Below are positions 3,077 to 21,500 of a stretch of 64,000 nucleotides of DNA, piece by piece. The stretch comes from an uncultured Ignavibacteriaceae bacterium (GTDB lineage Bacteria; Bacteroidota; Ignavibacteria; UBA10030), in NCBI GenBank assembly GCA_964362905.1, contig CAYIHQ010000001.1, positions 1,163 through 65,162 of the forward strand. Direction: 5' to 3'. Every line of letters begins with the position of its first letter. The stretch's first letter is position 1. Made by a program: the position numbers and the translations under genes. The notes beneath the pieces were generated by a model. That model did not search any database and was not told the origin of the DNA. It saw nothing but the letters and a program-made list of their open reading frames with translations.

Positions 3077-4230
3077 CAGGCGTTCTCGAAGAAACAGGGC
3101 AGGGCGAACGCGCAGATAGCGCACTGCGGATCCGTCGCGTTCCCCGCATCACATCCGGGGTTGCGCTGGCCAAACTGCTTGTAGCACACGGGATTCCCCG
3201 TCGTGGGGTCGATCGCGGGGGCACCTATCTGGGACGGGGACTGGACCACAGCAGCAGAGGGCGTGGGCTGGGAGGGTGCGAGATTCGGTGGGGCGACCAC
3301 CTTTGCTGGCGCAGACTTCGGAGGAGGAGGAGGAGGAGGAGGAGGTGGTGGTGAACTAGCCGCTGACGCCGCACGCCGCTCCGGTGTCTGCGCAACCCGC
3401 TGTGTCAAGCTGGCTAGGCTTCCCTCGGTCACGCCCTTCCCGAGATCCGAGCTGAGCGGACCAAACTGTCGCCCCCACTGCACCATCAGCTCCGCGGCAA
3501 CGACCTGCTTGGCCAGCCGCGCATCGTCCAACAGCGTCCACTTCTCCAGGTCGATCAGATCGCTGAGCAGCTTGTCCGTCTCCTCCACACTCGACGCCGC
3601 CGGCCCCCAGTTCCCGGGCTTCACCGAGCAGGAGTACCTCGTGTCGAGCCCCTCGCCCGTACGAGTCACGATCAGATCAGCACCATTGTAGGGGTCCACC
3701 CACAGCCCAAACTGCGGATTCATAATGCTAGTCTGCACGTAGTTGTAGAGATCGCTTGGTCCCTCCAGCAGCACGATCTTGCCAAACAGCTCCTGCTCCT
3801 GCGGAGCATTGCCAGGATCCATGCAGACTCGCAGAATCGCATTGAAGAGCGCTCTGGGCTTGGCCCGCTGACGCTTCAACTGATCCTCCGGGACCACGCC
3901 CTCGATCTTGTCGTAGGCCACACAGATGGAGCACGACTCGTAGCGCTCAGGATCCGTGTTGCGACCACACAGATGAATGCCCTTCGATTCGCCACCCCAG
4001 TAGAGAAAGTGCTTGTACTGAAGCTTTCCCAGCAGCCCCCGACGAAGCAGAGCCTCATTACCAGGGGGGAGAATGCGCAGCACCGAAGTACCCTTCAGGG
4101 GAGAGAAAAACGCAGTCCTTCCCCCACGCTCATCCAGCTTCCTCTGGATATCCTCTGCCTGCTGCTGCGCCGCCTCCAAATTGAACATCGCCGCGAAGTG
4201 ACTTGCACCCTTCTTTTGCATCTCTGCCAT
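3076..4230 (-). CDS. T4 gp32-like single-stranded DNA-binding protein with a poly-proline linker and a Cys-rich C-terminal tail
   Basis: The layout parallels gp32: VLRILPPGNE (gp32 VIRFLPS), a zinc-site-like HLCGRNTDPERYESCSICV, RAKPRALFNAILRV, and GADLIVTRTGEGLDTRYSCSV. An AAGAGG Shine-Dalgarno lies 6 nt upstream of the ATG. A run of 11 Pro is followed by NPVCYKQFGQRNPGCDAGNATDPQCAICAFALPC. Confidence 0.65.
   Translation of the reverse strand: MAEMQKKGASHFAAMFNLEAAQQQAEDIQRKLDERGGRTAFFSPLKGTSVLRILPPGNEALLRRGLLGKLQYKHFLYWGGESKGIHLCGRNTDPERYESCSICVAYDKIEGVVPEDQLKRQRAKPRALFNAILRVCMDPGNAPQEQELFGKIVLLEGPSDLYNYVQTSIMNPQFGLWVDPYNGADLIVTRTGEGLDTRYSCSVKPGNWGPAASSVEETDKLLSDLIDLEKWTLLDDARLAKQVVAAELMVQWGRQFGPLSSDLGKGVTEGSLASLTQRVAQTPERRAASAASSPPPPPPPPPPPKSAPAKVVAPPNLAPSQPTPSAAVVQSPSQIGAPAIDPTTGNPVCYKQFGQRNPGCDAGNATDPQCAICAFALPCFFENA
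3320..3352. repeat. trinucleotide microsatellite (GGA)8(GGT)3 encoding the poly-Pro run of the SSB
   Basis: Read directly from the sequence: ggaggaggaggaggaggaggaggaggtggtggt. On the minus strand it gives CCA/CCT proline codons. Confidence 0.9.
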
Positions 4231-4269
4231 GTTTGCCTCTTTGTCTCTTGTTGTTCGTTTTCAGTTCTT

Positions 4270-4764
4270 TCAGCCATCGGCTTTCAGAGCCGCACGATCG
4301 TTCCGCGTGATCTCGATGAGCACTTCTTGTCGTTCTCGTAGAGCCTCCCGCAGTTCCTGGAATAACCCATACAATTCCTCAGCTTGGGTGACCTTAGCGC
4401 ACAAGGCATTATATTGCTCGTCCAAATCACCTAGCTGGGAAACAGCAGATTCCGTGACCTTGATGCCGCCAGTTGTCAACTCATTACGAGCATCCGTCAA
4501 CGCTCTGGCGTAGTCTTTTTTCTTCTCCTGCGCTAGCGACTTAGCAATAGCAGCATATTTTACCTTCAGAAAGCCGCACAGGACAGAAGCATCGTTAGTT
4601 ACGAGAAGATGCGCGTCCTCCACATGGGGCACATCTACTGTTAGAGACAGACCACGGAGCAAGCGCACGAGTAGTGCAGCATCATCAAGCACCAATACGC
4701 TATTGGCGCGTACGTGCCCAACAATGGTCGCCAGATCACCCGTTGTCAATACCTCGCACTTCAT
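4270..4764 (-). CDS. hypothetical protein with a coiled-coil-like C-terminal half (164 aa)
   Basis: The track ORF was trimmed to the ATG at 4764 (MKCEVLTTG...), which makes an ATGA overlap with the upstream stop (4761-4763). The C-terminus is Glu/Leu/Ala/Arg-rich. Confidence 0.55.
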   Translation of the reverse strand: MKCEVLTTGDLATIVGHVRANSVLVLDDAALLVRLLRGLSLTVDVPHVEDAHLLVTNDASVLCGFLKVKYAAIAKSLAQEKKKDYARALTDARNELTTGGIKVTESAVSQLGDLDEQYNALCAKVTQAEELYGLFQELREALRERQEVLIEITRNDRAALKADG

Positions 4765-5129
4765 ACCCCCGTCTCCCCCCACTGCGCCAGCAGCGCCTTC
4801 GCCAGCGCCGTGCCGAGATCTTCCTCATCGCTAGCCAGAATCGTGCCATGGCGGAGCACACTCCACACGAAACGGCTACCCTCGTTTGCGCAGTGGATGC
4901 TGAGCGGCCAATCCACCATCGCCAGTAGGCCGCCGCATGTCGCGGGGTCGTCGAGAGCGGGATAGTGCCAGGCGTCACAACGATGACCAGTCGGGGCATC
5001 ACCATCTAGCCGCCCCCATTCCTTGGCGTTAGGATCGTCCGTCGCGGCGTACGTACCATCCACCCATAGCCACCTGGGATGCGCGGCCAGGCGCTTCGCC
5101 AGCTCGATCTGCTCTGGGGTCATACTCAT
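4761..5129 (-). CDS. hypothetical protein (122 aa)
   Basis: ORF whose start makes an ATGA overlap with the PolA stop (5126-5129). No recognisable motif. Confidence 0.55.
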   Translation of the reverse strand: MSMTPEQIELAKRLAAHPRWLWVDGTYAATDDPNAKEWGRLDGDAPTGHRCDAWHYPALDDPATCGGLLAMVDWPLSIHCANEGSRFVWSVLRHGTILASDEEDLGTALAKALLAQWGETGV

Positions 5130-8100
5130 CGGGGAGCGAGCTTCAAGCTCGCTGTGACCTCATCTATACCATCCTTGCCACGGCTCCGGATGATCTTTTC
5201 CGGAAAAACTTTCCAGGTGAGGCCCAGGCGGTGGACAATAGGTGTCAGCAGCGACAGCTTACCCGATAGCATCAAGAAATCCCCTTCGAGATGCACCTTC
5301 ATCTGATCGCACCAATTCAAGCCCATTGTAAAATCCACAGCAAGTGGCACGTTCAGCCAGGGGTAGATCACAGGCAGCTTGTCCTGCATTTCTTCTCGAA
5401 GTATTTTGAGTGCAGAAAGAAGCTCTAATCCTTGAACATCATAGAGACCAGAATCATGTACGGAGCCGAAGACCACACTCGACAAGCCCTCTCGACGAAA
5501 GCGATAAGCTACTCGGGAGACGCTTCCGAGAGTAATGTCAGACCCTAGACCCTGAATTGGCGTGTTCACAGCGCAGCGCAAAGCATGCGCTATTTTCCTC
5601 TGAACTCCAGAGTCAAGATCCTCCTGCAAAAAGCGGATTCTTCCTACCTTAGAGATACAGACCTTGTATTTCCTAGCAAACTTGTGCTGATCTGCTATCC
5701 ACTTCTTTATCAGTGGAGCAGAGTTCAGAAAGTCGTCCTTGATCTTGGCTGCCGCAGCCTCCGTCAATCCGGTACGATCCGCGATGCTGGAGGCTTCCGA
5801 ACCATAGAGCAGCCCGAAGATCGTAGCCTTCGCCAACTGACGCTGCTCCTCCGTGACATCCCCCAGGGCTACCCCATAGGTCTTGGCCGCCGCAGATCGG
5901 TGCGGATCCTCACCCCTGATGAAAACATCACGCAGGTCACGATCGCCAGACTCCACCACGAACAAGCGTACCTCTAGCTGGCTGTAGTCGCCGCAGACTA
6001 CAAATCCATCGGGAGAGCGTGAAATGAAAATGCGCTTGATTACACTCTTGCGCGGTACCGTGTGCAGTGGTGGTTCCCGTGTACTCAACCTCCCCGTGAC
6101 CGTACCATCCTGATAGTAGTTCGTGTGCATGTACCACAACCCGGTCCTCGGCTCGAACTCACGGGTCGGGTAATTTGATGTCTCATCCTCCAGCGTACGA
6201 ACCTTGATGTAGTTAGGTAGGCTTTTCGCATACGCTGTGTAGAGCTTAGACGCCTTCGCATAGGAGAGCAGAGCACGGAGCACCGCCGCATGCTCTTCCA
6301 GACCCTGCAAAGCACAGTACTCCAGTGCCTCTTCCTTTGCCTCACGATCTGTAGTACCTCCCCCTGGAAGCCGCATGATCGTCCAGAGAAGGAGCGCAAC
6401 TTGCTGGGGGCTGGCTGGGTTGAGATCCTGATAGATCCATTCCGGCTGCTCCAAGTCGATATCCATCTCACCCGTGGGGAGCATCTTCCGTTTCGCACGC
6501 AAATCGCTACCGTGGCAGGCCAAGCAGCATTCTACGGCAGCCCGCTCAAAACGAGGCTCTGAGTACCACCCGCAGGAATTACATAGATAGTAGCCAGCAG
6601 ATTTCTTTCTCTGCTTCCTTCTCTTTTTGTTCTCTTTCTTGGTCCTCTCTTGCCAAGGTGCATGAAACCTGGATGAATGCACAATCGCAAGCTGCTCCGA
6701 CATTTCTTTGTACAGAGATGCTTCTAGGAGAGGCAGCTCCTTGTAATCCAGTGGCGCCCCCGCGATCTCCATGTCCACTACGCAGCGCCACGGCTGCATG
6801 TAGAGACCTAGAAATGCTTCATACAGGTTGCGATAGTGCTGCTTTCCCGCACGACCGTAGCTGCTGTAATCTTCTGCTCGCAGCAGCTCTCGAAGAATCG
6901 GATATAGTCGAAGAGTGGTCTCGGCGTCGTCGCACCCATAGCGTACCAGGAGATCCCTGGGAGCGCATGAGAAGTCGAGCTGCTTCCCCGGTGCCCTCAT
7001 GGCATCCAAAGCATTCGTAATGAGGCTCTTATGCGATGCCTGCCCCAGGTAACGAGTAATTAGGTAGTCCAGATCATTCGGCTGCGAGCCACCCCACAGA
7101 CAATGGTGCGCCAGGAGCACGTCAAACACTAGCTTCTCGACTCGAAGACCCAGCTTGCAGTAGAGCCAGAGATAGTCCCCCTTGAAGTTCTGGCCAGCGA
7201 CGGGAACTCGATCAAACACCTTCTTTAGCTGGTCACAAAGCACCCGGATTCCTAGAGCGGACGCGAATGCCGATCCCTCCAAGATCACAGGGATGAACAC
7301 CGCCTCACCCGGGCCGCTGGAGACCTGAATAGAGATAATCGTATAGCGCGGATCCCAAGGCGTAGGCTTCTCCCCATAAGGAGTATTCGTCTCCAAGTCC
7401 ACACCGATGGCCCCGTAAATCAAGGCACCCGCAGCGTAGCGTGACACCAGATCATCCGCCCAAGCAACTAGCTCCTCGTGGCTTCCTATCTCCCTATAGT
7501 TCCTAGCCGTCTCCTTCGGCAGTCCCTCCGTTGCTACACGAAGCGCGAGCGCCAAGTCATTAGCCAGATCCGCTCTAGCCCTCTCATTCCCTCGCAGAAT
7601 GTAAGCTGGATGCCAAGAGGGAATAACTGGGATGTTGAAAACCAGTGCCTTTCCCTCTGCATCCACTAGATCGGTACCGAAGGACACAACCTTCGGTCTC
7701 CCACGGATCTCCCCCATCTTGGCCTGTAACCCGGTCAGCACGCGAGTAGCAGGCTTCCCCAGGGTTACAATGACCTTGGGTCGCAGATTCTGAATCTCAT
7801 TCCACAGGTAGTCCACACAGGCGATGATCTCCGTGTCCGTCGGCTCCCGATTATCAGGAGGACGACACTTCACCACGTTAGTGATGTAGACCTGGGACTG
7901 AGACAATCCGACCTGAGATAGCAGCTCATCCAAGAGCTGCCCAGAAGGCCCCACAAAGGGAGCACCCTGTCGGTCCTCGTGATAACCCGGCGCCTCCCCC
8001 ACGATGAGAACGGAAGCCTGTTCCGAGCCCCGCCCCCGCAAGCACACATGGCTCACCCCCTTGGAGAGCGCACAACGAGAGCACCCGTGGTCATAGCAAG

Positions 8101-8173
8101 CAGCAACCCAACTAGGCAAGGCAGTTACTTGCATACCGTCTCTTTGTGTGCCATCACTCCAAGACGGGGCCAC
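5126..8173 (-). CDS. polA: fusion protein: family-4 uracil-DNA glycosylase-like domain + 3'-5' exonuclease + family A DNA polymerase
   Basis: UDG4 motifs are present: GEAPGYHEDRQGAPFVGPSG, VVKCRPP, SWHPAYILR. The Exo I motif is IGVDLETN. PolA motifs are: motif A DYSQLEVR, motif B RQLAKATIFGLLYG, NTPIQGLGSD, and motif C SVHDSG. The start is a GTG at 8173; the ATG at 8134 is an alternative. Confidence 0.9.
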   Translation of the reverse strand: MAPSWSDGTQRDGMQVTALPSWVAACYDHGCSRCALSKGVSHVCLRGRGSEQASVLIVGEAPGYHEDRQGAPFVGPSGQLLDELLSQVGLSQSQVYITNVVKCRPPDNREPTDTEIIACVDYLWNEIQNLRPKVIVTLGKPATRVLTGLQAKMGEIRGRPKVVSFGTDLVDAEGKALVFNIPVIPSWHPAYILRGNERARADLANDLALALRVATEGLPKETARNYREIGSHEELVAWADDLVSRYAAGALIYGAIGVDLETNTPYGEKPTPWDPRYTIISIQVSSGPGEAVFIPVILEGSAFASALGIRVLCDQLKKVFDRVPVAGQNFKGDYLWLYCKLGLRVEKLVFDVLLAHHCLWGGSQPNDLDYLITRYLGQASHKSLITNALDAMRAPGKQLDFSCAPRDLLVRYGCDDAETTLRLYPILRELLRAEDYSSYGRAGKQHYRNLYEAFLGLYMQPWRCVVDMEIAGAPLDYKELPLLEASLYKEMSEQLAIVHSSRFHAPWQERTKKENKKRRKQRKKSAGYYLCNSCGWYSEPRFERAAVECCLACHGSDLRAKRKMLPTGEMDIDLEQPEWIYQDLNPASPQQVALLLWTIMRLPGGGTTDREAKEEALEYCALQGLEEHAAVLRALLSYAKASKLYTAYAKSLPNYIKVRTLEDETSNYPTREFEPRTGLWYMHTNYYQDGTVTGRLSTREPPLHTVPRKSVIKRIFISRSPDGFVVCGDYSQLEVRLFVVESGDRDLRDVFIRGEDPHRSAAAKTYGVALGDVTEEQRQLAKATIFGLLYGSEASSIADRTGLTEAAAAKIKDDFLNSAPLIKKWIADQHKFARKYKVCISKVGRIRFLQEDLDSGVQRKIAHALRCAVNTPIQGLGSDITLGSVSRVAYRFRREGLSSVVFGSVHDSGLYDVQGLELLSALKILREEMQDKLPVIYPWLNVPLAVDFTMGLNWCDQMKVHLEGDFLMLSGKLSLLTPIVHRLGLTWKVFPEKIIRSRGKDGIDEVTASLKLAPR

Positions 8174-8200
8174 ACTTTAGGTGTTGGTATTGAGAAAGAA

Positions 8201-8254
8201 GTGCGGCTCACCTTCCGTTCAACAACTCTCGCCCAGTTTTTGGGTGAGCCGCAC
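8201..8254 (-). promoter_or_regulatory. perfect 12-bp inverted repeat (GTGCGGCTCACC / GGTGAGCCGCAC) with a 30-nt loop, in the gap between the DUF932-like gene and polA
   Basis: The arms are at 8201-8212 and 8243-8254. On the minus strand the hairpin is followed by TTCTTTCTC. It could be a terminator or attenuator, an RNA processing site, or a protein-binding site. Confidence 0.4.
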
Positions 8255-8265
8255 CTTTGGTGTTC

Positions 8266-9252
8266 CTAGTGCGGAAGCAGTGACTCGCACTGGCTACATC
8301 GCGGTGCCTGCGCATTCGCCTGCGCCAAGCCCAGCACAGTGCTACCTATCTGCTCGAACCGATGGCGAGTGCGTGGATTCTCGTGCTCTTGCGCATAGCT
8401 CGTCAGGAGATTGACAAGCCCGTAGACCGTTGGACGCTCCATAGAGGGTACTCGCGCGAGCAACGCCACCTGATGTCGCGCAGGAATCCGCAGATCATGG
8501 AGCATGTGCGTCAGGTAGGCCGTTGGGTTCGTCACTGCATGCTCATCAGAGAGCACAAAATCCTGGAGTAGCTGACGCGCCACGTCATACGCCTGCTGCA
8601 CCACGACCTGAGCAGCAGCCATCATGGCCTCACGAGTCAGGTGGCTCCCCGCAGAAACCGAAGTCCCCATCGTCTCCCGGTGCATGCCATTGGTGCAGAC
8701 CATGCGGTAGACGTAGGGGCTGGCCTTCACGGCCCCATTCAGCTCGACCAGCACGCCACTGTGCGAAACATCCCCCACGGCGCGCGCGGGGGTGGCCGAG
8801 TGCTGGGCAACAAGGCGGAGCGCCAAATGTCCAGCATCGTCCACGTCAGCACCCTGGACCCCCGCGAGCTGGGGAAGACGCTGCACGATCGGCAGCAAGT
8901 CGCCGAAGTCTAGGCCACTCCCAGAACCGGGCTCGATCGAGACCACTCGATCCCCCAGGATCGAGAGACACACCGCCTCTCCAGATCGACGCGATTGGCT
9001 GGAGCGGAGCATCCGCTGCAACAGCTCCGGATCGTCCTTATACTCCGTCATCGCCCCCGAGGGCAGACCCAGGACGTTCAGCGTCCGCGAGTAGACACCA
9101 GAGAAATCCAGATCGTGTTGCGAGATGCTGACACCATTGTTGGTGGCCGAAAACTGGAGGCCCCCAAGGGTAGTACTCACGTTCCTCTGGCGCAGCCCCT
9201 CAATCTTTTGAGCAAGCTGATCCAGTGAGAGCAAAGCTGTAGCTGTTGTCAT
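8266..9252 (-). CDS. DUF932-like (phage/plasmid-associated) protein
   Basis: 328-aa ORF. The central YRMVCTNGM resembles the R-x-V-C-x-N signature I associate with DUF932/DUF945 proteins. This is recollection only. Confidence 0.45.
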   Translation of the reverse strand: MTTATALLSLDQLAQKIEGLRQRNVSTTLGGLQFSATNNGVSISQHDLDFSGVYSRTLNVLGLPSGAMTEYKDDPELLQRMLRSSQSRRSGEAVCLSILGDRVVSIEPGSGSGLDFGDLLPIVQRLPQLAGVQGADVDDAGHLALRLVAQHSATPARAVGDVSHSGVLVELNGAVKASPYVYRMVCTNGMHRETMGTSVSAGSHLTREAMMAAAQVVVQQAYDVARQLLQDFVLSDEHAVTNPTAYLTHMLHDLRIPARHQVALLARVPSMERPTVYGLVNLLTSYAQEHENPRTRHRFEQIGSTVLGLAQANAQAPRCSQCESLLPH

Positions 9253-9255
9253 GGG

Positions 9256-9330
9256 TTATGCCGTCGTTGTGCCTATTGTTGCCGTGCCTGTTGTTGCCGT
9301 CGTTGTGCCTGTTGTTGTACCCGTTGTATT
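9256..9330. repeat. imperfect tandem direct repeats (21-nt unit gccgtcgttgtgcct[a/g]ttgtt twice, with a 15-nt partial copy between them)
   Basis: Read directly from the sequence. The repeats lie in a 196-nt stretch (9253-9448) whose only ORF (9256-9477) has atypical codon use. Confidence 0.65.
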
Positions 9331-9448
9331 TTGCACCCAGTACCAAACGGGTGTGTACGTGGGTGTCACTACCGCCGGTACTTCCGAAAAGCGATCGAGG
9401 TAGCGACGATGGGGATGGGAATGAGGGGGAGAAGAGGCCCAGGCGGCC

Positions 9449-9676
9449 CTAGCAAAAGGGACGGACCGCCACCTCAAGGCGGTCGAGACGATCCCGATGT
9501 GTTTCGGGGATCATCAGAGCAGCCGCTACTCTCGCCGCATTCTCGTCCTTGGCCAAAACTAGGCCACTTGAGAGAATGCTGGCTTTTTCCAATGTGCTTC
9601 TCATCCCAGCACCCGTGTCCGGCCGATCCGGCCGATAGACAATGACGTAATCGAACGCCTGTTCTCTGTCACTCAT
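9449..9676 (-). CDS. hypothetical protein (75 aa)
   Basis: The track ORF was trimmed to the ATG at 9676 (MSDREQAF...), 2 nt after the upstream stop at 9669-9671. Confidence 0.5.
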   Translation of the reverse strand: MSDREQAFDYVIVYRPDRPDTGAGMRSTLEKASILSSGLVLAKDENAARVAAALMIPETHRDRLDRLEVAVRPFC

Positions 9677-10001: not shown

Positions 10002-10087
10002 GCTCTCTCTTTACCACGGTGGTCAGCGGAGGAGAAGTTTTTTCCAAGAATCTTTCCGCGTGCCGGCGACGCCCGTCGCCAGACTAG

Positions 10088-10294
10088 TCACGAGTCACGA
10101 AGCCAGGTGTCGCGGGGGGTACGGGCTCGCCTCTCGGCGCTCGATCGGGCTCGAAGCTGGCGCTCGATCTCAGCCAGCCTCTCCTCCAGGCGGCCTATCC
10201 ACTCCAGCGCCGACACCAGCATCGCCCGGATGTCCTCCACCAGGCGCGCGGGGATCTCGGGCTCGGTGATGGGTTGTGTTCTGCTTGTTTCCAT
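10088..10294 (-). CDS. hypothetical small helical protein (68 aa)
   Basis: The ORF starts 7 nt downstream of a TGcTACTCT extended -10-like element. The sequence is Glu/Arg/Leu-rich. Confidence 0.45.
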   Translation of the reverse strand: METSRTQPITEPEIPARLVEDIRAMLVSALEWIGRLEERLAEIERQLRARSSAERRARTPRDTWLRDS

Positions 10295-10301
10295 GCCCAG
10301 G

Positions 10302-10310
10302 AGAGTAGCA
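10302..10310 (-). promoter_or_regulatory. extended -10-like promoter element TGcTACTCT, 7 nt before the ATG at 10294 (leaderless-type arrangement)
   Basis: The minus strand reads ttTGcTACTCTcctgggcATG. The same TGnTAnnnT-N6/7-ATG geometry occurs at 17817-17825. Confidence 0.3.
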
Positions 10311-10335
10311 AAAGGGGGACAGAACCTTCCTAAAG

Positions 10336-10375
10336 AAAAAAAAAGTCCTACGCAGGGCGCCCCCTACCCCTGGCG
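10336..10375 (-). terminator. putative intrinsic terminator after the Com-like gene
   Basis: The minus strand reads CGCCAGGG-gtagggggcg-CCCTGCG, then taggac, then T9 (the A9 at 10336-10344 on the plus strand). The stem has one bulge and overlaps the last codons of the gene. Confidence 0.45.
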
Positions 10376-10552
10376 GGAGAGTTCCACCACGAGCGTCAGG
10401 GGGCGCCCGCAAGCGTGGCACTCGGTGTGTACCCGCGTACGCCCATCGGGATCCCGGGTACGCACCCGGAGCTGCCGGCGCACCAGGGTACCGCAAGAGC
10501 ATCGCACGTCCACCACAGAAGCCTTCGGCTGGTTTTGGTTTTGGTTCGTCAT
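10364..10552 (-). CDS. small zinc-ribbon protein (Mu Com-like fold suspected; 62 aa)
   Basis: The track ORF was trimmed to the ATG at 10552 (MTNQNQNQ...), with an AGGAG 8 nt upstream. The Cys pairs are VRCSCG ... ECHACG. Confidence 0.5.
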   Translation of the reverse strand: MTNQNQNQPKASVVDVRCSCGTLVRRQLRVRTRDPDGRTRVHTECHACGRPLTLVVELSRQG

Positions 10553-10610
10553 CGGTCTGACTCCTATACCACCAGCAGATCGCCGGATGCACAGAAGTGC
10601 AAGCAATTTT

Positions 10611-14516: not shown

Positions 14517-15998
14517 TCAGGCTAGGCCGAAGGCCTTACGGAGTGGGATGGGAAGTGAGGTGACGACCTCAATCCCCTCGGCCTCGTAATCGGCCTTGCG
14601 CTTGTTGCTCTGAGCGCGAAGCATGGGGGAGGTGTGGTCGATGAAATCGACGACGTAGCTCTGAGTCTTCCCCTCAGAGACCGTCATGGCACGAAAAGCC
14701 CGCTGAAGAGTACGAATGGTGGACTTGCCTCCATCTCCGATGACCACGGCAGAAAGAGAAGGCAGGTCAATCCCCTCGTCGTAGACGGTGCTTCCCACCA
14801 CACAGCGGAGCCTCCCGGAGAGAAGCATCTGCTTCACCTGAGCTGCTTGTGTATCGTGCTGGAGACTACCACGTTTGCACACCGCTGAACGCTGGTTTCC
14901 AAAGACCATTGCACAATCCACATCCTCAGAGATGGATTTTAGGAGAGAAAATCCATGCTTTATCTCCTTTACGAGCACGAGGACCGTCTCTCCCGCATCG
15001 TGAAGGGCTCGCACGATCTGAGCTATGATCTTGTTCCTGTAATCGTTTTCTACGATTCCCTTTTTATGCACATTAGGCCACCTGTGCATATGCCACAGAG
15101 ATGGCTTCTTGATCGTAGGCATCAAGACGACGGGCTCAACGAGGTAGCGAGCATCCCGGAGATACTTGGAGCTGATCTCCACGATCCTCGGTCCCGTGGC
15201 ACCCATCAAAGCGAAATCAGCATGGTGAAAACCTGCTCCTTTCGCTACCCGCAGAGGAGTACCAGAATAGCCTATTCGGTATGCCGCTGGGATCTTAGCG
15301 AATACCTGATAGTACGTATTCGCACTCCCTAGATGGTGGCACTCGTCACACTGAGCTAGCTGGAGGCCCTGAAGCCACGTTCCAAGCTCTGTGTCTCCAG
15401 CTTGGATCGCTCGCCAGAGAGTCTGGAATGTGGCTACCACATGGAGAGCCCCCAGCTCCCTGTGACCTCCGCCGAGACGGCCTATTGGTCCGACCCCACG
15501 CGAGACAAAGCGCTCGTAGTGCTGCTCAAGCAAGTCCTTCTTTTCTACAAGCAGAATGCTAGGGACATTCAGCAGCTTGGCTACAGCTATCTGTATCTCT
15601 GTTTTTCCGCCGCGTGGAGCAATTGAGACCACACCGCGTTTTCGTCGCAGGATCTCAGAAATGGCGTCAACCTGGTAGTCCCGCAGTGTGACCCCATCGA
15701 GTAGAGCTGTATGAGGAGCACCCTGCGGCAATACTGGGAGAGGAAGATGGTCTTCCACCACGGGGGTAATCCCCGCTTTTGCCAGCTCCAGCAACACATG
15801 GGAAAAGAGACCCGAAGGAAACGTACGCATTTCCTTGTCTAGGAAAAAGGTACGCATTCCATCCCATGTCCCTTGCTTGAAATCCCAGTCACTCTCTGCC
15901 GTAGGGTCGCGGAAGTGAAGAATAGAGCAAAGAGCAGCTTGCTCTGCGGCGTCCACGCAGTCCGCTACAGTTACATGGGCGTAGCGAGCGAGACGCAT
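14517..15998 (-). CDS. SF2 DEAD/DEAH-box DNA helicase (UvsW / type III restriction Res-like)
   Basis: LRDYQVDAISEIL (Q motif), IAPRGGKTEI (motif I), CDECHHLGS (motif II), YSGTPLR (motif III). The C-terminal helicase domain has VVGSTVYDEGIDLP. Confidence 0.8.
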   Translation of the reverse strand: MRLARYAHVTVADCVDAAEQAALCSILHFRDPTAESDWDFKQGTWDGMRTFFLDKEMRTFPSGLFSHVLLELAKAGITPVVEDHLPLPVLPQGAPHTALLDGVTLRDYQVDAISEILRRKRGVVSIAPRGGKTEIQIAVAKLLNVPSILLVEKKDLLEQHYERFVSRGVGPIGRLGGGHRELGALHVVATFQTLWRAIQAGDTELGTWLQGLQLAQCDECHHLGSANTYYQVFAKIPAAYRIGYSGTPLRVAKGAGFHHADFALMGATGPRIVEISSKYLRDARYLVEPVVLMPTIKKPSLWHMHRWPNVHKKGIVENDYRNKIIAQIVRALHDAGETVLVLVKEIKHGFSLLKSISEDVDCAMVFGNQRSAVCKRGSLQHDTQAAQVKQMLLSGRLRCVVGSTVYDEGIDLPSLSAVVIGDGGKSTIRTLQRAFRAMTVSEGKTQSYVVDFIDHTSPMLRAQSNKRKADYEAEGIEVVTSLPIPLRKAFGLA

Positions 15999-16019
15999 AT
16001 TCCTTGGCTTCTTTGCTTC

Positions 16020-16253
16020 TCAGCGAGAGACGCGCCGTCGCAACCAGTCGGCGATTACAACCTTCAGCGCGTCCTCCCGGGATACCCCACCGAGAGCAGT
16101 CTGCACCTCGGAGAGCATCGCCTCTGAACCCTTTTCACCCGTAATCGCGCTCGCTTGGCACTTGGGGCACCCGGGATCGTCCCTCGAAGTCCCAGCCCAT
16201 CCGTAGCGGTGTCCGCGAGAGCACGCACGGTCAAAGAATCCGGTCTTGGTCAT
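16020..16253 (-). CDS. small Cys/His zinc-binding-like protein (77 aa)
   Basis: ACSRGH...GCPKC. Its start makes an ATGA overlap with the upstream gene (16250-16253). Confidence 0.5.
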   Translation of the reverse strand: MTKTGFFDRACSRGHRYGWAGTSRDDPGCPKCQASAITGEKGSEAMLSEVQTALGGVSREDALKVVIADWLRRRVSR

Positions 16254-16501
16254 GCGGGATTCTGAAACTCCTCATCCACAATCCTTGCGACGGCCAAGCA
16301 GTGTCTAACCAGATCCCTTATCCACTTCATCGTCTCCTCCGTCACCGAAGTTCCGATCATATCCGGATACTTGATGGCAAAAGCTGTCCATGCGTGGTTG
16401 AAGAGATCGCGCGCGATGTCATCTACTCGTGCCCTACGCTGCGCCTCTTGATAAGGTGTGGACGGTGGTGAAGGTCTCTGAAGCTCTCTTTTGTCAGACA
16501 T
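16250..16501 (-). CDS. hypothetical protein (83 aa)
   Basis: The track ORF was trimmed to the ATG at 16501 (MSDKRELQ...), which overlaps the stop of the aaRS-like gene by 8 nt. Confidence 0.5.
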   Translation of the reverse strand: MSDKRELQRPSPPSTPYQEAQRRARVDDIARDLFNHAWTAFAIKYPDMIGTSVTEETMKWIRDLVRHCLAVARIVDEEFQNPA

Positions 16502-17216
16502 GCTCTCTATTCCACGTCTCACTCGCAAGGCTGACAATCCGGTCAAGACCAGCAGCTACTTCGAGCACACAATGTACTTCGCTGAAATCCGTGCGCGTGG
16601 ATATGGAGCACATTTCCAGCATTATGCCCCTATACTCAGCTTCTACATCCACCGTCTTCGTGCTGTAAGACGGAAGTCTATCGCTGAGCACTATTTGTGT
16701 GCGCGCGCCGGTGAGTAATCCTATCGCGGACTGTACAGCGGGTGTCACGGCAGCACGATAATCCGCCTTAGTAGCCATCGCGTAAATGCACTGGAACTCA
16801 ACCTGGTAAAACTCGTTGAATCGTAGCTTCGAGACACGGGCACCATCGTTGGTTTCACGGCGAAAACTCTTGCCGGATTGCCATACACACAAAGGGAGGC
16901 GTATACCCTTTATCGTCTTGAGCAGGTGTCTCGCTACGGTGTAGCTGCTAGGAGTGGTCTCTGGCCGCAGGACCATCTCGTCCCCACCCAACCTCGCGTT
17001 GAGCAGCCATACGTCGTCACCCGCGTAGGCATCGCTAATTTGGGGGCGCGGCGTAAGAATCGGACCCTCACAGCGATGGAACTGCCAGGCCGAATTGAGA
17101 GAGCGCAGAGCACCACTCACCGCGCCGAAGAGCTTTTCCGTGGCCACCTCGCGCCATGCTATCTGGTCCTCGTCCCAAAAGCGGAGGCCCCCAAACCCGT
17201 AAAGCGCCTCACTCAT
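16494..17216 (-). CDS. minimal class-II aminoacyl-tRNA-synthetase-like catalytic core (HisRS/GlyRS-type motifs, no anticodon-binding domain)
   Basis: 240 aa. Motif-1-like: FHRCEGPILTP. Motif-2-like: MVLRPETTPSSYTVAR...WQSGKSFRRETNDGARVSKLRFNEFYQVEFQ (compare LRPE.T..R...G..FR.E....R..EF.Q.E). Motif-3-like: VLEVAAGLDRIVSLA. Confidence 0.6.
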   Translation of the reverse strand: MSEALYGFGGLRFWDEDQIAWREVATEKLFGAVSGALRSLNSAWQFHRCEGPILTPRPQISDAYAGDDVWLLNARLGGDEMVLRPETTPSSYTVARHLLKTIKGIRLPLCVWQSGKSFRRETNDGARVSKLRFNEFYQVEFQCIYAMATKADYRAAVTPAVQSAIGLLTGARTQIVLSDRLPSYSTKTVDVEAEYRGIMLEMCSISTRTDFSEVHCVLEVAAGLDRIVSLASETWNREHV

Positions 17217-17585
17217 TTTGACTCGTTTTCGTCATGCCAAAAACCGCCAGGGCTTACACCTGGCTCCGGCACTACCGACCGTAGCATTCACCGGGCAATA
17301 CTGCTTTCGGAGGAGCTGGTTATGCTGGGCTCTTCCGATCACACCCCAGTACAGGGGCGTCACACCCCTGTACAGGAGCATCATCTTTTCGTACCTCTTC
17401 CCAGGTAACACACTACCAGAAGAAGCGCACCTACTCAGGTAGTAATCGCCTGAGCTGTCGCGTTGATGATGGCGGCTCCTTAGATGGATACCCAGTGTGT
17501 CGGGGGCCACCTAGCGGTAGGTGCTACCTAGCCGAAGGAGTGAGCGGGAGGATAGCTGGTAGCAGCTAGAAAACCTAGAAAAAAC
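17217..17585 (-). ncRNA. candidate structured 5' leader or non-coding RNA upstream of the aaRS-like gene
   Basis: A 369-nt gap with no convincing ORF. Several perfect stems are visible: TAGCTG/CAGCTA at 17553-17568, CTCCTT/AAGGAG at 17476-17540, CTCAGG/CCTGAG at 17434-17454, and a 12-bp stem with one mismatch at 17346-17376. A terminator-like hairpin plus T5 sits at 17239-17264. Confidence 0.35.
17239..17264 (-). terminator. terminator/attenuator-like hairpin 22 nt upstream of the aaRS-like start codon
   Basis: The minus strand reads GCCAGG-tgtaagc-CCTGGC-gg-TTTTT-gg. The stem is only 6 bp. Confidence 0.4.
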
Positions 17586-17810
17586 TCAGAGCACGCGGCG
17601 AACCAGCAGGGCGCGGGGCTCCTGCTCCAGAAGTGCCTGTGCGGCGTGTTGCCAGTCCCTTCCCTCGCCGTAAAACGGGAGGCCCCTACGATCTCGCACC
17701 TTGAGGATGCAACCGCCGTCGAATCCCCAGAATACCTCGGCCTCGCAGCTCCAACGCCGCGACGCCCACGCACAAGCCGCCGACTCTGTGCTCGGGAGTT
17801 GAGTTTCCAT
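17586..17810 (-). CDS. hypothetical protein (74 aa)
   Basis: The ORF begins 6 nt downstream of TGgTAGAAT and follows the strong terminator at 17851-17900. The product has Trp/Cys/Gly-rich globular-looking sequence. Confidence 0.5.
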   Translation of the reverse strand: METQLPSTESAACAWASRRWSCEAEVFWGFDGGCILKVRDRRGLPFYGEGRDWQHAAQALLEQEPRALLVRRVL

Positions 17811-17816
17811 GACGAG

Positions 17817-17825
17817 ATTCTACCA
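17817..17825 (-). promoter_or_regulatory. extended -10 promoter element TGgTAGAAT, 6 nt before the ATG at 17810 (leaderless-type arrangement)
   Basis: The minus strand reads ttgTGgTAGAATctcgtcATG. Confidence 0.35.
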
Positions 17826-17850
17826 CAAAAGTAGCGAGAAGTAGGGGTAG

Positions 17851-17900
17851 AAAAAAGTGGACGCCGGTTACCAGGCGTTTTTCCCTGGCTCCCGGCGTCC
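17851..17900 (-). terminator. strong composite intrinsic terminator at the end of the tail/fibre operon
   Basis: The minus strand reads GGACGCCGG-gag-CCAGG-gaaaaacg-CCTGG-taa-CCGGCGTCC-ac-TTTTTT. That is 9 + 5 bp of perfect stem followed by T6, located 40 nt after the stop at 17940. Confidence 0.7.
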
Positions 17901-17939
17901 TGGCAAGGAGAAGAGGAGGAGATCTTCCCTAGTTTCGCG

Positions 17940-18515
17940 CTACACCGTAAACGTGAACTTCCACGAGTACAGCAACTGGAATGCTGAGGTCTTGGTGATG
18001 GTCGTGTGAACCTGTCTGGCGATCATCCCACTGGTGGATGCGCTGTTGACGGAGAAGAGCCCCGCCTCTTTTAGATCCGCGCCCAGAGTCAGTGGCTCGG
18101 TCTGTGGGATCAACATGTCGAACTGTACCCCATTCACCGGAGTACCGAGAAAGCTCTTCCCCGTGAAGGCAAAGCGTGCTCCTGCAATAGCTCCCTGAAG
18201 ATCCGTCTGGTTGACATCGGCGGCTACAAGGGACGTACCTACTCCAATTTTCCCCGGCTGGAGTGTGGCGTAGCTCTCCGGTGTCGAGGGGCCTCCCCAG
18301 ACATAGGCCAGGATCGTGAATCCCTGGTTCACGATGAGATTCGACTTCTCGACCAGAAGCTCTTTTTCACCCCCCGGAAAGATCCGAGCGATAGACAGCT
18401 CGCCCCGCACGCGGATGACCCTATCGGTGTCAGAAGCGGGGGTCTCAGCCCTACGATCAGCAATCGTATCCATGGCACGAACAAACTCCTCGACCTTCAC
18501 GTTGGCTTGGCTCAT
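17940..18515 (-). CDS. virion structural protein, distal tail/fibre-associated (191 aa; function unknown)
   Basis: The track ORF was trimmed to the ATG at 18515 (MSQANVKVEEF...), which makes an ATGA overlap with the stop of the 1017-aa fibre gene. It is the last gene of the tail operon. Confidence 0.55.
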   Translation of the reverse strand: MSQANVKVEEFVRAMDTIADRRAETPASDTDRVIRVRGELSIARIFPGGEKELLVEKSNLIVNQGFTILAYVWGGPSTPESYATLQPGKIGVGTSLVAADVNQTDLQGAIAGARFAFTGKSFLGTPVNGVQFDMLIPQTEPLTLGADLKEAGLFSVNSASTSGMIARQVHTTITKTSAFQLLYSWKFTFTV

Positions 18516-21500
18516 AGCTTCATCGCAATTCCCACAATCGTCAGCTCTGTGATCTTGTGGTAGTAGCCATTCAAAAAGAACACTCGCAGGTCCAGCACGG
18601 CGCCATTCGGGTTGGTGGACACACCGTTCGGACACCTGTACATGACTGCAAGGCCACTCCCTGTCGCTGGCGGCCCGTTGCGGAAGAGCACCTTGCTGGC
18701 CGTCACACTCCAGGTGATAGACCACCCGGCAGCACTGGGAAGCGTAGTAGTCTGGTAGGTCGTCAGGCTGGGCCAAGCTACATTGAAACCGACTGGATCA
18801 TCTTGCGCGGAAGAAAAGCCATTGCCTGCCAAGTTGGTGACATCCACCACCAGGGACCAAATAGCCTGCACGCCCCGAGTGGTCGCGGGTGAGGACCAGA
18901 AGTGCTTGACGTTCGCGTGGTCCAGATCAAAGGTCAGCTTACGCGCAGATATGTCAATCCCCAGCACCAGATCATTCTTCGCCTCGAAGACCAGGGGAGT
19001 CTGAGGAGTGCAATCCGTGATGAGACCACTCTGCTGATACGCCTGGATCGCCACGATTGCATCCCGGAGGCGTGCCCCACTGACAGGGGGCAGACCGGGG
19101 AGAGAAGAGAGCGCTCCGAAGGACCAGCCACCATGGGCCTGGAAGTTCTGGACCAAGAGGGACTTCGCTGGGAAGCCCCCACTCGTATTGACCGCCGTAC
19201 CCACCATTCCACAGTAGGTGTTACCCGCGTTGACCGAGCCTCCTCCATCATCGAAGGTGTGGATCAGCGGGTTGAGCACCGGATCCACCTCATTGGCCAC
19301 CTTGCCCGCCGGTGTGGCTACGGACTCCTTCTGCACCCAGTTGTGGCGCGCATTGGACCCGCCCCAGAAGACCTTGTGGTTACGAACACCATCGTACTCG
19401 ACACGGAGGGTGGAGAAGACGCCTCGAAGTGGCGGGTCCACAGTGAAGGTGCTACGGACCACGGCACTGCCAGTACCCGTACGCTCCCGGATCTCACCAA
19501 CCCCATTTCCACGGATCACACAGAGGAATCCGAAGTCAGTGTTGATCGTACCATCCCCTTGGTTCTTAGCCCCATAGATGAGACCGAACTCTGGGATATT
19601 CCCGCTCTGCACCCAGCTATCTACACCTACCTCCGCAGAGACAATCAGATCACTGAGCACGGACCAAGCGATGTAGACGGTGTAGCCCGCAGGTGGGGGA
19701 GTAGAGAAAGTGATACTACCCTTACCCGTAGTCAAATCAACAGTGCTCAGAGCCTGATTGATGTTGGTGCCGATGATCTGCGCTACCGGAGTCGCCCGGT
19801 TGTCCAGACCATCTGCCCACGTCAATGTGCCATTACCCACCGAGACGTAGATGCTACCGACACGAATACCCGTACCTATGGGTTGGAGTTTGAGTGCATC
19901 GGTAGTGAAATCAAATTGGGATTGTAACCCATTTGCTGCGAATGTCGTCTGGTGCCCCGCAGCACGCCGGTAGACACAGCGATCCTCCACACCGGCACCC
20001 GCACCCCCCACGTAGACCGAGGTATTGGAGCCAATGGTTACAAACTTGGTAGCACTCTGCGTCCACTTGACGCCCTCTGTAGATGGGGCGAGCTTCGTGA
20101 GATCCTGGATTGCGAAGTTATCGAACCGTGGATAGGGTCCAAATAGATTGCGAGCGTTAGACGCCTCGCTGGCGTGCTTCGGATACGTGGTGTTGGGCCA
20201 AGCGGGATCCCGTGCATCCACCAGCGTGACGACATCACCCTCACGCCCGGCTGTAATGTGCTTGCCCGTCGAAGCGAGGGGCACCGGCACATAGTCGTCC
20301 CCCACAGTGACTAGGCGGTAGCGGTCGAGCCCCCGGTCGAAGGACACCGGGTACTCCCACCCCGGAGCCGCGCGTCGCCAGCCCGGGGCCTTCCCCTCCC
20401 GGTATACCCAGAGCGCCCCCTCCGTCTTGGACATGCGGATCTCCCCGTCCACCACCCCCGTGGTCGGGAGGTAAAGCCGCTCCTCCAGAGTCAGACCCCA
20501 GGGACCAACCCCGGCTCCACTGCGATCGTTGACACCACGCAGGAACGCACGAGTCCAACCCTCGCCATAGAAAGTGATGGGCAGCCGATCCGCATAGCGC
20601 CCACCCTCCCCCCGGGAGAAGCCAAAAATCTGCTTCACCGCGTCATCTAGCTGGTAGGCCCCACTCACCAGCTCGCTGAAGAGCACACGACAGGCTGACC
20701 CCTTGTCCGGCGCTGTGTTGGCACCAGAAACCACTTCGAGATAGTTTCCTGCCCCATTCTTCTGCACCACCCGTGCCGGCCCAACCGAGTAGGCCGCAAA
20801 CCACGGGCTGTTTGCCACGAAGGCAGCGTTGATCTTGTCGCGGATCTCCGTGACAGTGGTAGCCACTGCGGTGGCTCCCTGGCAGTCGATGTTGAGTGGT
20901 CCAAAGGTTCCCAGCGGGGTGGTGATCTTGATGCGCAGATAGCGAACGATGGAGAGATCAACCGGATTGGTCAGGTCCACCTCAGAGGTGGCAGTAGCTG
21001 GCGTGTTGGAGTACAGCAAGTAGTCGTATTTGCTGGCCCCCGTGTTGTACCAAGGAGTGCCCTCCAGAGTAGTAGCCCCGGTCACCGTGTAGGGTACTGC
21101 CAGGCCCCGGCTGGCCACACCGAAGATCATATCCAGCGCATCCGCGGAGCTGCCATTATTCAGCGTGATGGTCGCCGTGGTACCCGCAGTAGGCGTCCTC
21201 AGCAAGATATACGCCGAGCTGTCATACGCTTGGGCATCGTAGACGAAGGCCACGGTACCAATGCTGCTGAACGCGGAGTTGATAGCCGATACCGCCTCGG
21301 TGGGGGTCACCGCCGTGATGCTGACTGCTTGTGACCGCAGGTTCACCGTCTGTGCCACACCGTTGATGGTGAGATGCACATTGTACTTGGTGGACATGTC
21401 GATGCGCGCAAATCGCACATCGCTGACGATCTGCGCCGGGATCGCCGGAGTCTGGCTGCCCGCATGCCCCGTGGCCACGGCCTTCAGGAGATCCCGAAGA

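Follow-up and report, generated by a model that had tools for sequence, protein, structure and literature searches.

Synthetase paralogues that lack an anticodon-binding domain are known from EF-P lysylation, queuosine glutamylation, carrier-protein loading and asparagine synthesis. Several of them, namely EpmA/PoxA (LysRS-like), HisZ (HisRS-like), AsnA (AspRS-like) and the SerRS-like amino acid:carrier-protein ligases, have the architecture of a separate catalytic core. In this work, we examine a gene with that same core-only architecture, the parent of which is, unlike in those systems, a glycyl-tRNA synthetase (GlyRS). Literature searches on phage and truncated GlyRS brought up no characterised example of a stand-alone core derived from this enzyme. 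The gene, which we call the mini-synthetase, encodes a protein of 240 amino acids (aa) at 16494-17216 on the minus strand of a 64,000-nucleotide (nt) stretch of DNA, hereafter the window (contig CAYIHQ010000001.1 of GenBank assembly GCA_964362905.1, forward-strand positions 1,163 to 65,162, deposited under an uncultured Ignavibacteriaceae bacterium), which carries an uncultured groundwater phage. It is preceded by a spacer of 369 nt, the leader. The original prediction, which was drawn from the DNA letters, had seen in the two a minimal aminoacyl-tRNA synthetase (aaRS) with its own structured RNA, which could form a new module. We come to a different reading, which as a whole we would put close to an even chance without quite reaching it: that of a stand-alone, catalytically competent class-IIa core derived from GlyRS, lying behind a leader that would be a spacer specific to this lineage.

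The closest described enzyme is the alpha2-type GlyRS (1ATI/1B76 from T. thermophilus, 8T5N/8U2P from M. tuberculosis, 5Z5E from N. equitans), which gives the best match by both profile and fold. The mini-protein has in common with it motifs 1-3, the signatures RPET(T/A), GKSFR(R/N)E and EF.Q.E, three glutamates aligned with the glycine pocket, the LxxYS..T.D(V/I)E...R(T)DF segment and the motif 3 sequence E.(A/S)AG.(D/T)R. It is, however, about half the size, it has neither the C-terminal anticodon-binding domain nor the insertion domains, and it scores below the curated cut-offs. When a profile of 37 family members was compared with PDB sequences, alpha2 GlyRS came first (3e-12), followed by the N. 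equitans and T. thermophilus GlyRS, while PylRS (9e-5) and SerRS (7.6e-4) were far behind. PylRS deserves a mention since its core (~270 aa; ISO4-G1, M. alvus), a naturally occurring class-II enzyme of about the same length, can charge its tRNA with no need to read the anticodon, since it is among the structural as well as the profile matches, and since some phage mini-synthetase genes adjoin a tRNA(CUA). However, its profile match is the weaker one, the pocket of the mini-protein is GlyRS-like, and the phage CUA tRNAs look like ordinary cloverleaf suppressors with G73.

The original prediction had likened the product to HisZ, EpmA, AsnA or the carrier-protein ligases more than to a true synthetase. 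This holds for the stand-alone core; it does not hold for the parentage, which profile, NCBIfam and Foldseek all place with alpha2-type GlyRS. Unlike HisZ, the mini-protein retains its catalytic residues, and no his genes lie nearby in the window. More generally, mini-synthetase loci have no adjacent hisG, EF-P or carrier-protein gene, and the SerRS-like ligases are further set apart by the weakness of the SerRS profile match.

The mini-synthetase and its family

The gene and the landmarks of its product are the following.

16494-17216, minus strand: gene for a mini-GlyRS-like class-II catalytic core (a 240-aa open reading frame, ORF, with start MSEALYGFGGLRFW), recognised from the ORF, profile, fold and conservation
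Around P52 of the protein: motif 1
R119 and E121 of the protein: part of motif 2
G223 and R226 of the protein: part of motif 3
E86, E140 and E219 of the protein: putative glycine pocket, from the alignment with GlyRS

The motifs that had suggested a class-II enzyme (FHRCEGPILTP, LRPETT, GKSFRRE...RFNEFYQVEFQ and AAGLDRI) are all present in the product, and the arginines of motifs 2 and 3 (R119 and R226) align with those of class-II cores and are conserved. The protein ends ~14 residues past motif 3, and its alignments span about residues 171-350 of a 476-aa GlyRS. The anticodon-binding, insertion and editing domains are absent. The alignments and the fold model thus bear out that this is a stand-alone core, too short to carry an anticodon-binding or an editing domain. 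The AlphaFold2 model, for which the family alignment was the input, consists of a single alpha/beta domain (pLDDT 90.3, pTM 0.89). In a Foldseek comparison with the PDB, which had been proposed as a check against class-II cores, its best matches are GlyRS catalytic domains (E 2.5e-14, TMq 0.70-0.73, TMt ~0.4), and the aligned region of the full-length synthetases is the catalytic domain only. Against BFVD, the first match is a 222-aa phage member of the same family, followed by giant-virus GlyRS.

The searches with sequence and with curated models lead to the same parent. With the single sequence as query, alpha2-type GlyRS is again first among PDB sequences (2e-4). The best NCBIfam model is glycine--tRNA ligase (NF003211; 1.8e-11), with a score of 43.6 bits against a cut-off of 312, and TIGR00389 gives 26.5 bits against a curated cut-off of 243.3. 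Because of the first of these scores and of the missing domains, the protein is not a canonical GlyRS. In Pfam, the class-II core PF00587 is found just below threshold (26.7 vs 29.3 bits) and there is no other match, while the hisZ model TIGR00443 reaches 2e-4 with 20.5 bits against a cut-off of 271.65. The protein does not match PF02091 or glyQ, and it is thus unrelated to the GlyQ alpha subunit of the alpha2beta2 GlyRS; neither does it match the LysRS/AspRS-type PF00152 or an AsnA model. Judged on its sequence and predicted fold, the 240-aa product is a cut-down catalytic core of an alpha2-type GlyRS.

Catalytic conservation was assessed in an alignment of 103 representatives, whose identity with the window protein is 28-64%. 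At least 90% of them keep R84, E86, T87, T88, Q113, S117, R119, E121, F136, Q138, E140, Q142, Y184, D190, E201, R208, D210, E219, G223, D225 and R226. Three of these residues, E86, E140 and E219, are conserved at 97-98%, and each is aligned with a glutamate of GlyRS: by the offsets of the profile alignment, E86 is the counterpart of residue 188 in 1ATI, the GlyRS of T. thermophilus, while E140 and E219 align with glutamates of the GlyRS segments 'EQMEME' and 'IEPAAG'. The three GlyRS glutamates (188, 239 and 359 in T. thermophilus) are those that we take to bind the ammonium group of glycine. Since the ATP-binding positions and the glycine-pocket positions are both conserved, we infer that the protein probably makes an aminoacyl-adenylate, with glycyl-AMP as the best candidate. 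In a strain variant of the phage (L168; compared loci are cited by such numbers where needed), the gene differs by five substitutions, four of which are synonymous, the fifth being I102T.

This protein is one of a large family, with whose members it shares full-length similarity, length (about 235 aa in the family) and a set of common motifs, namely an N-terminal GGLRFW, RxETT, CVWQxGKSFRRE, EFQC, SDRLPxYS and RTDF. A word-indexed protein search returned at least 947 clusters at E<=1e-3. The best 120 of them are 227-258 aa long and 52-69% identical over almost their whole length (54-69% over 96-100% of the length for the top matches), and where JGI names them, the name is 'glycyl-tRNA synthetase'. 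An exhaustive profile search of representatives at 50% identity found 230 members at E<=1e-10, of which the complete ones are almost all 210-260 aa long. Many phages, often jumbo ones, carry the family. In culture, its carriers are jumbo phages of Caulobacter (CcrBL9, CcrSC and their relatives) and of Brevundimonas, the Sinorhizobium phage Phosso and the Xanthomonas phage XbC2, in which it is annotated as 'hypothetical', 'aminoacyl-tRNA synthetase', 'serine-tRNA synthetase' or 'RNA synthetase class II'. It is also carried by cells: a scan of species-representative genomes found 66 chromosomal loci, in the Rhizobium tropici/lusitanum/rhizogenes group, Devosia, Phenylobacterium, Caulobacter and Pseudaminobacter, under the RefSeq name 'aminoacyl--tRNA ligase-related protein'. 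Examples of these cellular members (~250 aa) are found in Rhizobium sp. SYY.PMSO (L131, 5992-6741), Devosia nitrariae (L166, 7001-7756) and Phenylobacterium ferrooxidans (L167, 7001-7744). The phage and cellular clades differ in the motif-2 loop, which reads TNDGA... in the former and QDQ...H in the latter.

No PHROG matches the mini-synthetase at E<=0.01, and we found no description of the family in the literature on truncated or phage GlyRS, on GlyRS-like proteins or on jumbo-phage aaRS. The family is thus catalogued but uncharacterised, a GlyRS-derived variant within the known class of stand-alone aaRS-core paralogues, and the copy in the window is an ordinary member of it. Phages may hold more than one family of minimal class-II-like proteins: the small unnamed viral proteins A0A141HRQ2 (217 aa), A0A292GIB7 (196 aa) and A0A2I7SAH4 (185 aa) of BFVD also match the class-II core fold, with E-values of 7e-9 to 6e-8 at 12-14% identity.

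Gene neighbourhoods and the possible reaction

The setting of the gene in other phages connects it to tRNAs. Among 68 dereplicated phage loci, a tRNA gene lies within 200 nt of the mini-synthetase in 13, within 1 kb in 27 and within 8 kb in 35. In several independent lineages (L038, L053, L057, L062, L067, L082 and L087), the mini-synthetase is a protein-coding island inside a tRNA array. A tRNA-Gly gene is found 19-20 nt upstream of it in L016/L025 and in L038, and tRNA-Gly is the commonest tRNA in its vicinity (39 of 282), an excess that is only suggestive given the numbers of isoacceptors and the duplicated loci. In one clade of phages of 160-470 kb, which includes the cultured Phosso, the gene order is CysRS, two small genes, tRNA(CUA), mini-synthetase and, further on, Pnkp. 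It is found at the following places.

L035, L046, L054, L056, L060, L061, L063 and L069, around 6000-9000: Phosso-type order
L098 (Phosso), 2579-5750: the same order

In the Phosso record, genes annotated as RNA ligase (upstream) and peptidyl-tRNA hydrolase (downstream) lie in the same stretch of 10 kb. The cluster has the appearance of a 'code-change operon', but the stretches that carry the suppressor tRNA showed no sign of TAG recoding, the coding density under the standard code being already ~0.9 there. Since phages often have the gene within a tRNA array, or with CysRS, an amber-suppressor tRNA, RNA ligase and Pnkp for neighbours, our best guess is a role linked to tRNA.

The reaction that we propose would proceed as follows. 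The core would act as a dimer through motif 1 and bind ATP and glycine to form glycyl-adenylate. The glycyl group would then be passed to the 3' end of a tRNA, the recognition of which would be possible only via its acceptor end, and the protein would serve the phage as an accessory factor in translation or in tRNA maintenance. This second step, the transfer to a tRNA recognised through its acceptor end, is more tentative than the adenylation, and its chance falls somewhat below even. Several observations weigh against it and against our reading of the protein. Glycine specificity rests on the alignment to GlyRS residues whose roles we presume, and charging without the anticodon or the GlyRS insertion domains is argued from gene neighbourhood only. 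The Phosso-type synteny comes from one clade and counts as one observation. About half of the phage loci have no nearby tRNA, and the window is one of them, ARAGORN having found no tRNA gene in it. Those family members that come closest to the window protein (63-65% identity) have as neighbours genes of nucleotide metabolism and replication, with ThyX, dUTPase, RNA ligase, primase and DNA methylase, and no tRNA genes. Finally, the cellular members stand alone among unrelated housekeeping genes: the Rhizobium copy adjoins gltD and gltB, the neighbours in Devosia and Phenylobacterium are unrelated, and the gene looks monocistronic.

Glycyl-AMP, or another acyl-adenylate, could instead be passed to an acceptor other than tRNA, such as a protein side chain, a carrier-protein thiol, an amine (with amide synthesis as in AsnA), a DNA base that is modified, or a further nucleotide as in Ap4A-type synthesis. 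EpmA modifies EF-P and SerRS-like ligases load the thiols of carrier proteins and, to our knowledge, the characterised aaRS paralogues without an anticodon domain all use non-canonical acceptors. A setting of replication and nucleotide metabolism would fit such a reaction, with helicase, DnaB and PolA here and ThyX, dUTPase, primase and DNA methylase in L007/L008, as would the distance of cellular members from tRNA genes and the difference of the motif-2 loop between the phage and cellular clades. However, no conserved protein partner was found within +/-8 kb in 83 phage loci or in 66 cellular loci. No family co-occurs more often than CysRS, which is present in 13 of the 83 phage loci and in one clade. 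There is no carrier-protein-like neighbour, the small ORFs downstream are not conserved, and the gene is found repeatedly inside tRNA arrays in independent lineages. Mom-type DNA modification depends on Gly-tRNA (PMC13219725). A Mom-type partner was looked for in the window; no GNAT or Mom domain was found in the 20 proteins scanned, in which the late-module proteins were not all included. With these points on both sides, we regard a non-tRNA acceptor as somewhat unlikely. The protein could also have given up catalysis and be a regulatory or structural paralogue in the manner of HisZ or of the accessory subunit of polymerase gamma, which in this phage might act for the replication proteins encoded next to it. 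Its gene does open the replication module, with those for helicase, DnaB and PolA shortly downstream, and GlyRS-like folds are known to have been taken up as accessory factors of polymerases, for instance in the mitochondrial DNA polymerase gamma subunit. Nevertheless, a non-enzymatic paralogue is not expected to keep its ATP-binding and amino-acid-pocket positions, which are at least 90% conserved across the 103 diverged members, and the replication setting is not conserved in the family, so that this explanation is highly improbable.

In its boldest form, the proposal of a glycylating core would make the family the smallest natural aminoacyl-tRNA synthetase, a GlyRS core of ~235 aa that glycylates tRNAs by their acceptor end, blind to the anticodon, and by which phages keep up or re-route the supply of Gly-tRNA. 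We consider this rather unlikely. If true, the upkeep of Gly-tRNA could counter, for example, host toxins aimed at tRNA-Gly, the enzymes of the Phosso-type clade could even load the adjacent amber-suppressor tRNA, and the family would be a living case of charging by the acceptor stem only (the 'operational code'). A tRNA acceptor would mean that phages have a minimal charging enzyme independent of the anticodon, which would bear on the evolution of the code, on counter-defence around tRNA-Gly and on tools for orthogonal translation, while a non-tRNA acceptor would mean a new glycyl-transfer reaction. In either case, the family is large and very well conserved, its catalytic positions are intact, and it is common to phages and to alphaproteobacterial host lineages. 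It can be approached in culturable carriers (CcrBL9 gp230, Phosso gene 258 and XbC2_371). As a separate observation, several jumbo phages (L097, which is CcrBL9; L099, which is XbC2; L034, L039-L043 and L047) repeatedly have genes of NAD salvage (NMNAT/NadM, NAMPT, NadE, PncA-like and PnuC) at no more than a few kb from the mini-synthetase.

The leader upstream of the gene

The layout of the leader invites comparison with T-box leaders, in which a long structured 5' region likewise ends in a hairpin and a U-run before an aaRS-like gene. T-boxes are rare in Proteobacteria, the hosts of related phages. The parts of the leader are the following.

17217-17585, minus strand: spacer of 369 nt between the mini-synthetase and a 74-aa ORF, rich in hairpins and short repeats and private to this phage
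17568-17553, minus strand: perfect hairpin with a 6-bp stem
17523-17508, minus strand: perfect hairpin with a 6-bp stem
17454-17434, minus strand: perfect hairpin with a 6-bp stem
17373-17349, minus strand: perfect hairpin with a 9-bp stem
17264-17246, minus strand: perfect hairpin with a 6-bp stem
17239-17264, minus strand: terminator-like hairpin GCCAGG-tgtaagc-CCTGGC followed by GGTTTTT, inside the 50/92-aa ORF
17339-17380, no strand: two tandem 21-nt repeats with GTAC-centred near-palindromes (CCTGTACAGG / CCCCTGTACTGGGG), which together form the 9-bp hairpin at 17349-17373
17232-17384, minus strand: ORFan ORF of 50 aa, or of 92 aa with GTG 17510 as start; a GAGG precedes the ATG by 9 nt, and the ORF may be either a genuine small gene or fortuitous

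The structural description given by the original prediction is accurate in its main points. Where at least four perfect stems had been announced, five distinct perfect hairpins are found (6, 6, 6, 9 and 6 bp), and the GCCAGG/CCTGGC hairpin with its T5 does lie at 17264-17239, 22 nt from the start codon. The leader has a stem/loop count of 7. Dinucleotide shuffles have 0.94 +/- 1.28, and 2 in 500 of them attain that count; genomic 369-nt windows of the same phage have a mean of 1.53, and 1.7% attain it. The minimum free energy of the leader RNA has a z-score of -3.8 to -4.3 and that of the opposite strand -3.0; across 42 other windows of the phage, the background is -0.9 +/- 1.3 and the lowest value -3.7. 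The leader is unusually palindromic but not uniquely so, and its fold signal is largely strand-symmetric. It also contains tandem direct repeats with spacings of 21, 17 and 9 nt. The 17-mer of the 17339-17380 repeats has no other copy in the window and, on sequence grounds, their GTAC near-palindromes, two helical turns apart, could well be an operator pair.

Two further statements about the leader were not upheld. It had been called poor in ORFs, yet the 92-aa ORF from the GTG (17232-17510), or its 50-aa ATG version (17232-17384), covers most of its 3' part. It had also been called the largest non-coding stretch of the window, whereas 9253-9668 (416 nt) and 10002-10610 (609 nt) are equally without a well-scoring ORF. 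In these two stretches, which belong to the replication module, no ORF of either strand has a codon score typical of coding sequence, and Rfam has no match; they may be non-coding or hold foreign genes.

The claim that the leader is an attenuator, riboswitch or T-box for the mini-synthetase fared no better. A search of Rfam with 17100-17900, which included the T-box model RF00230, gave no T-box, glycine riboswitch or tRNA at E<=10, and the whole window has no Rfam match at gathering scores. No specifier or T-box sequence is present. The nearest homologues (54-69% identity) begin 0-10 nt after the preceding gene or overlap it, and thus have no leader; for the closest ones (L090, L092, L007 and L008), it is 9 nt or an overlap. 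In 19 further phage and cellular homologues, no cis-regulatory Rfam family precedes the gene, the matches there being tRNAs and one 6S RNA only; the cellular copies have upstream gaps of 240-390 nt, without an Rfam match. This applies equally to the idea that the enzyme and its RNA form a module, since the leader is lacking in homologues and no riboswitch precedes them. A hidden tRNA, tmRNA or intron-containing tRNA was also considered, for which ARAGORN at relaxed settings gave only implausible sub-threshold models, and NCCA follows none of the leader hairpins. The leader shows no similarity to the IS605/TnpB element of L094, so that a remnant of such an element was rejected, and a replication origin with iterons was rejected because each repeat is present just twice and the GC skew does not switch.

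Sequence comparison gives the leader a narrow distribution. Seven other contigs carry this phage, L001-L006 and the strain variant L168, and none of them has a change in the leader; in L001-L006, leader and gene are 100% identical. No homologous leader DNA was found in GenBank phages or in any compared locus, and the metagenome scan returned only the same phage. In IMG/VR, no close relative was found through the helicase or tail genes. The strain variant L168 has no single-nucleotide polymorphism (SNP) in the leader, which is uninformative on selection because its SNP-free block, identical by descent, spans 16913-19045 and thus reaches well beyond the leader on both sides.

What, then, is the leader? 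A cis-acting attenuator or riboswitch that governs read-through at 17264-17239, or a small RNA that ends there, would be in line with the enrichment in hairpins, with the low fold z-score, with the position of the hairpin and T5, which leaves no room for a promoter between it and the ATG, and with the capacity of the T-run to pair with a downstream GAAAAC. The hairpin does fit the terminator consensus (6 bp, 5 of them GC, T5), but it sits within an ORF that runs through it, and terminator-like sites in the region number 2 against 1.6 +/- 1.2 in shuffles, hence no excess. Together with the opposite strand that folds nearly as well, the silence of Rfam even at E<=10 and the absence of a leader from every homologue examined, this makes a dedicated regulator of the gene quite improbable. 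A better case, although still on the unlikely side, can be made for a mostly coding leader, in which a 50-aa (or 92-aa) ORFan would end 15 nt before the mini-synthetase and reduce the true gap to ~200 nt or less. Gene callers predicted the 50-aa version on 4 contigs, its ATG is preceded by GAGG, and its codon score (0.09) is near that of the mini-synthetase (0.11) and equal to that of the 77-aa ORF downstream (0.09). However, this score lies between that of coding (0.20 +/- 0.10 in frame) and that of off-frame sequence (-0.19 +/- 0.07), the ORF is made up largely of the tandem repeat and hairpins, it has no PHROG match, and it matches only itself among 5.8 billion clusters. The 92-aa version matches only its own 50-aa call, and a conserved ORF across the leader was thus rejected.

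We read the leader as control or spacer DNA specific to this lineage and unrelated to any conserved RNA-enzyme module, and we favour this over a dedicated riboswitch or attenuator. Its parts would be operator-like palindromic repeats, a weak terminator-like hairpin and possibly the 50-aa ORFan gene, and it would be transcribed from a promoter-like site just past the terminator of the tail operon. The enrichment in hairpins is nevertheless real and counts against this reading, as the leader may have a role at the RNA level, such as a partial terminator or processing sites. For the family as a whole, the leader adds little, being specific to this one uncultured groundwater phage.

The locus between the tail and replication modules

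All the large genes of the window are on the minus strand. Upstream, at higher coordinates, lie tail-type genes, the last of which is a 191-aa gene followed by a strong hairpin and T6, while the genes downstream encode an SF2 helicase, DnaB, a fusion of uracil-DNA glycosylase and PolA, a gp32-like single-stranded DNA-binding protein and a RecA-like protein. The features at the boundary of the two modules are the following.

17851-17900, minus strand: long GC-rich hairpin (17-nt arms) and T6, likely the terminator of the upstream tail-gene operon
17817-17825, minus strand: extended -10-like sequence TGGTAGAAT, 6 nt before the ATG (17810) of the 74-aa ORF
17586-17810, minus strand: 74-aa ORFan ORF between the tail terminator and the leader, with an ambiguous coding score (0.03)
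16250-16501, minus strand: 83-aa ORF, the ATG of which overlaps the mini-synthetase stop by 8 nt (ATGTCTGA)
16020-16253, minus strand: 77-aa ORF with zinc-ribbon-like spacing of Cys/His, overlapping the 83-aa ORF by 4 nt; the SF2 helicase gene follows 21 nt further

The 83-aa ORF is probably translationally coupled to the mini-synthetase because of the overlap of its ATG with the stop codon, and we take the coupling to extend to both small ORFs. The small downstream ORFs have no Pfam match and are not conserved among homologous loci. The sequence TGGTAGAAT may be the promoter of an operon that reads through the leader. The 74-aa ORF has no Shine-Dalgarno sequence, and a promoter at this place would give a leaderless mRNA directly after the terminator of the tail operon. 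The same nonamer is found at 2310-2302.

Phages related through the helicase (40-51% identical) keep the order of helicase and DnaB, but the content between the tail genes and the helicase is different, without the mini-synthetase. In L094 (4750-5982), as well as in L095, with a helicase 41% identical, an IS605-type TnpB (OrfB_IS605 / Cas12f1-like TNB) fills this slot. Because TnpB is found there instead of the mini-synthetase, the slot between tail and helicase appears to be a hot spot of insertion. The codon scores of the whole 16020-17810 segment are lower than those of the core genes. In our reading, the segment was inserted as accessory DNA into a variable slot that separates the tail module from the replication module.

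Over 14994-20216, the strain variant L168 is ~99% identical to the window. It has 22 SNP positions that cluster in the tail-fibre gene (19046-20194) and are nearly all synonymous, and it has an in-frame deletion of 30 nt in the 83-aa ORF (about 16443-16472). As a last observation on the replication module, the DNA polymerase A gene (5126-8173, 1015 aa) combines an N-terminal domain of the uracil-DNA-glycosylase superfamily with a 3'-5' exonuclease domain.

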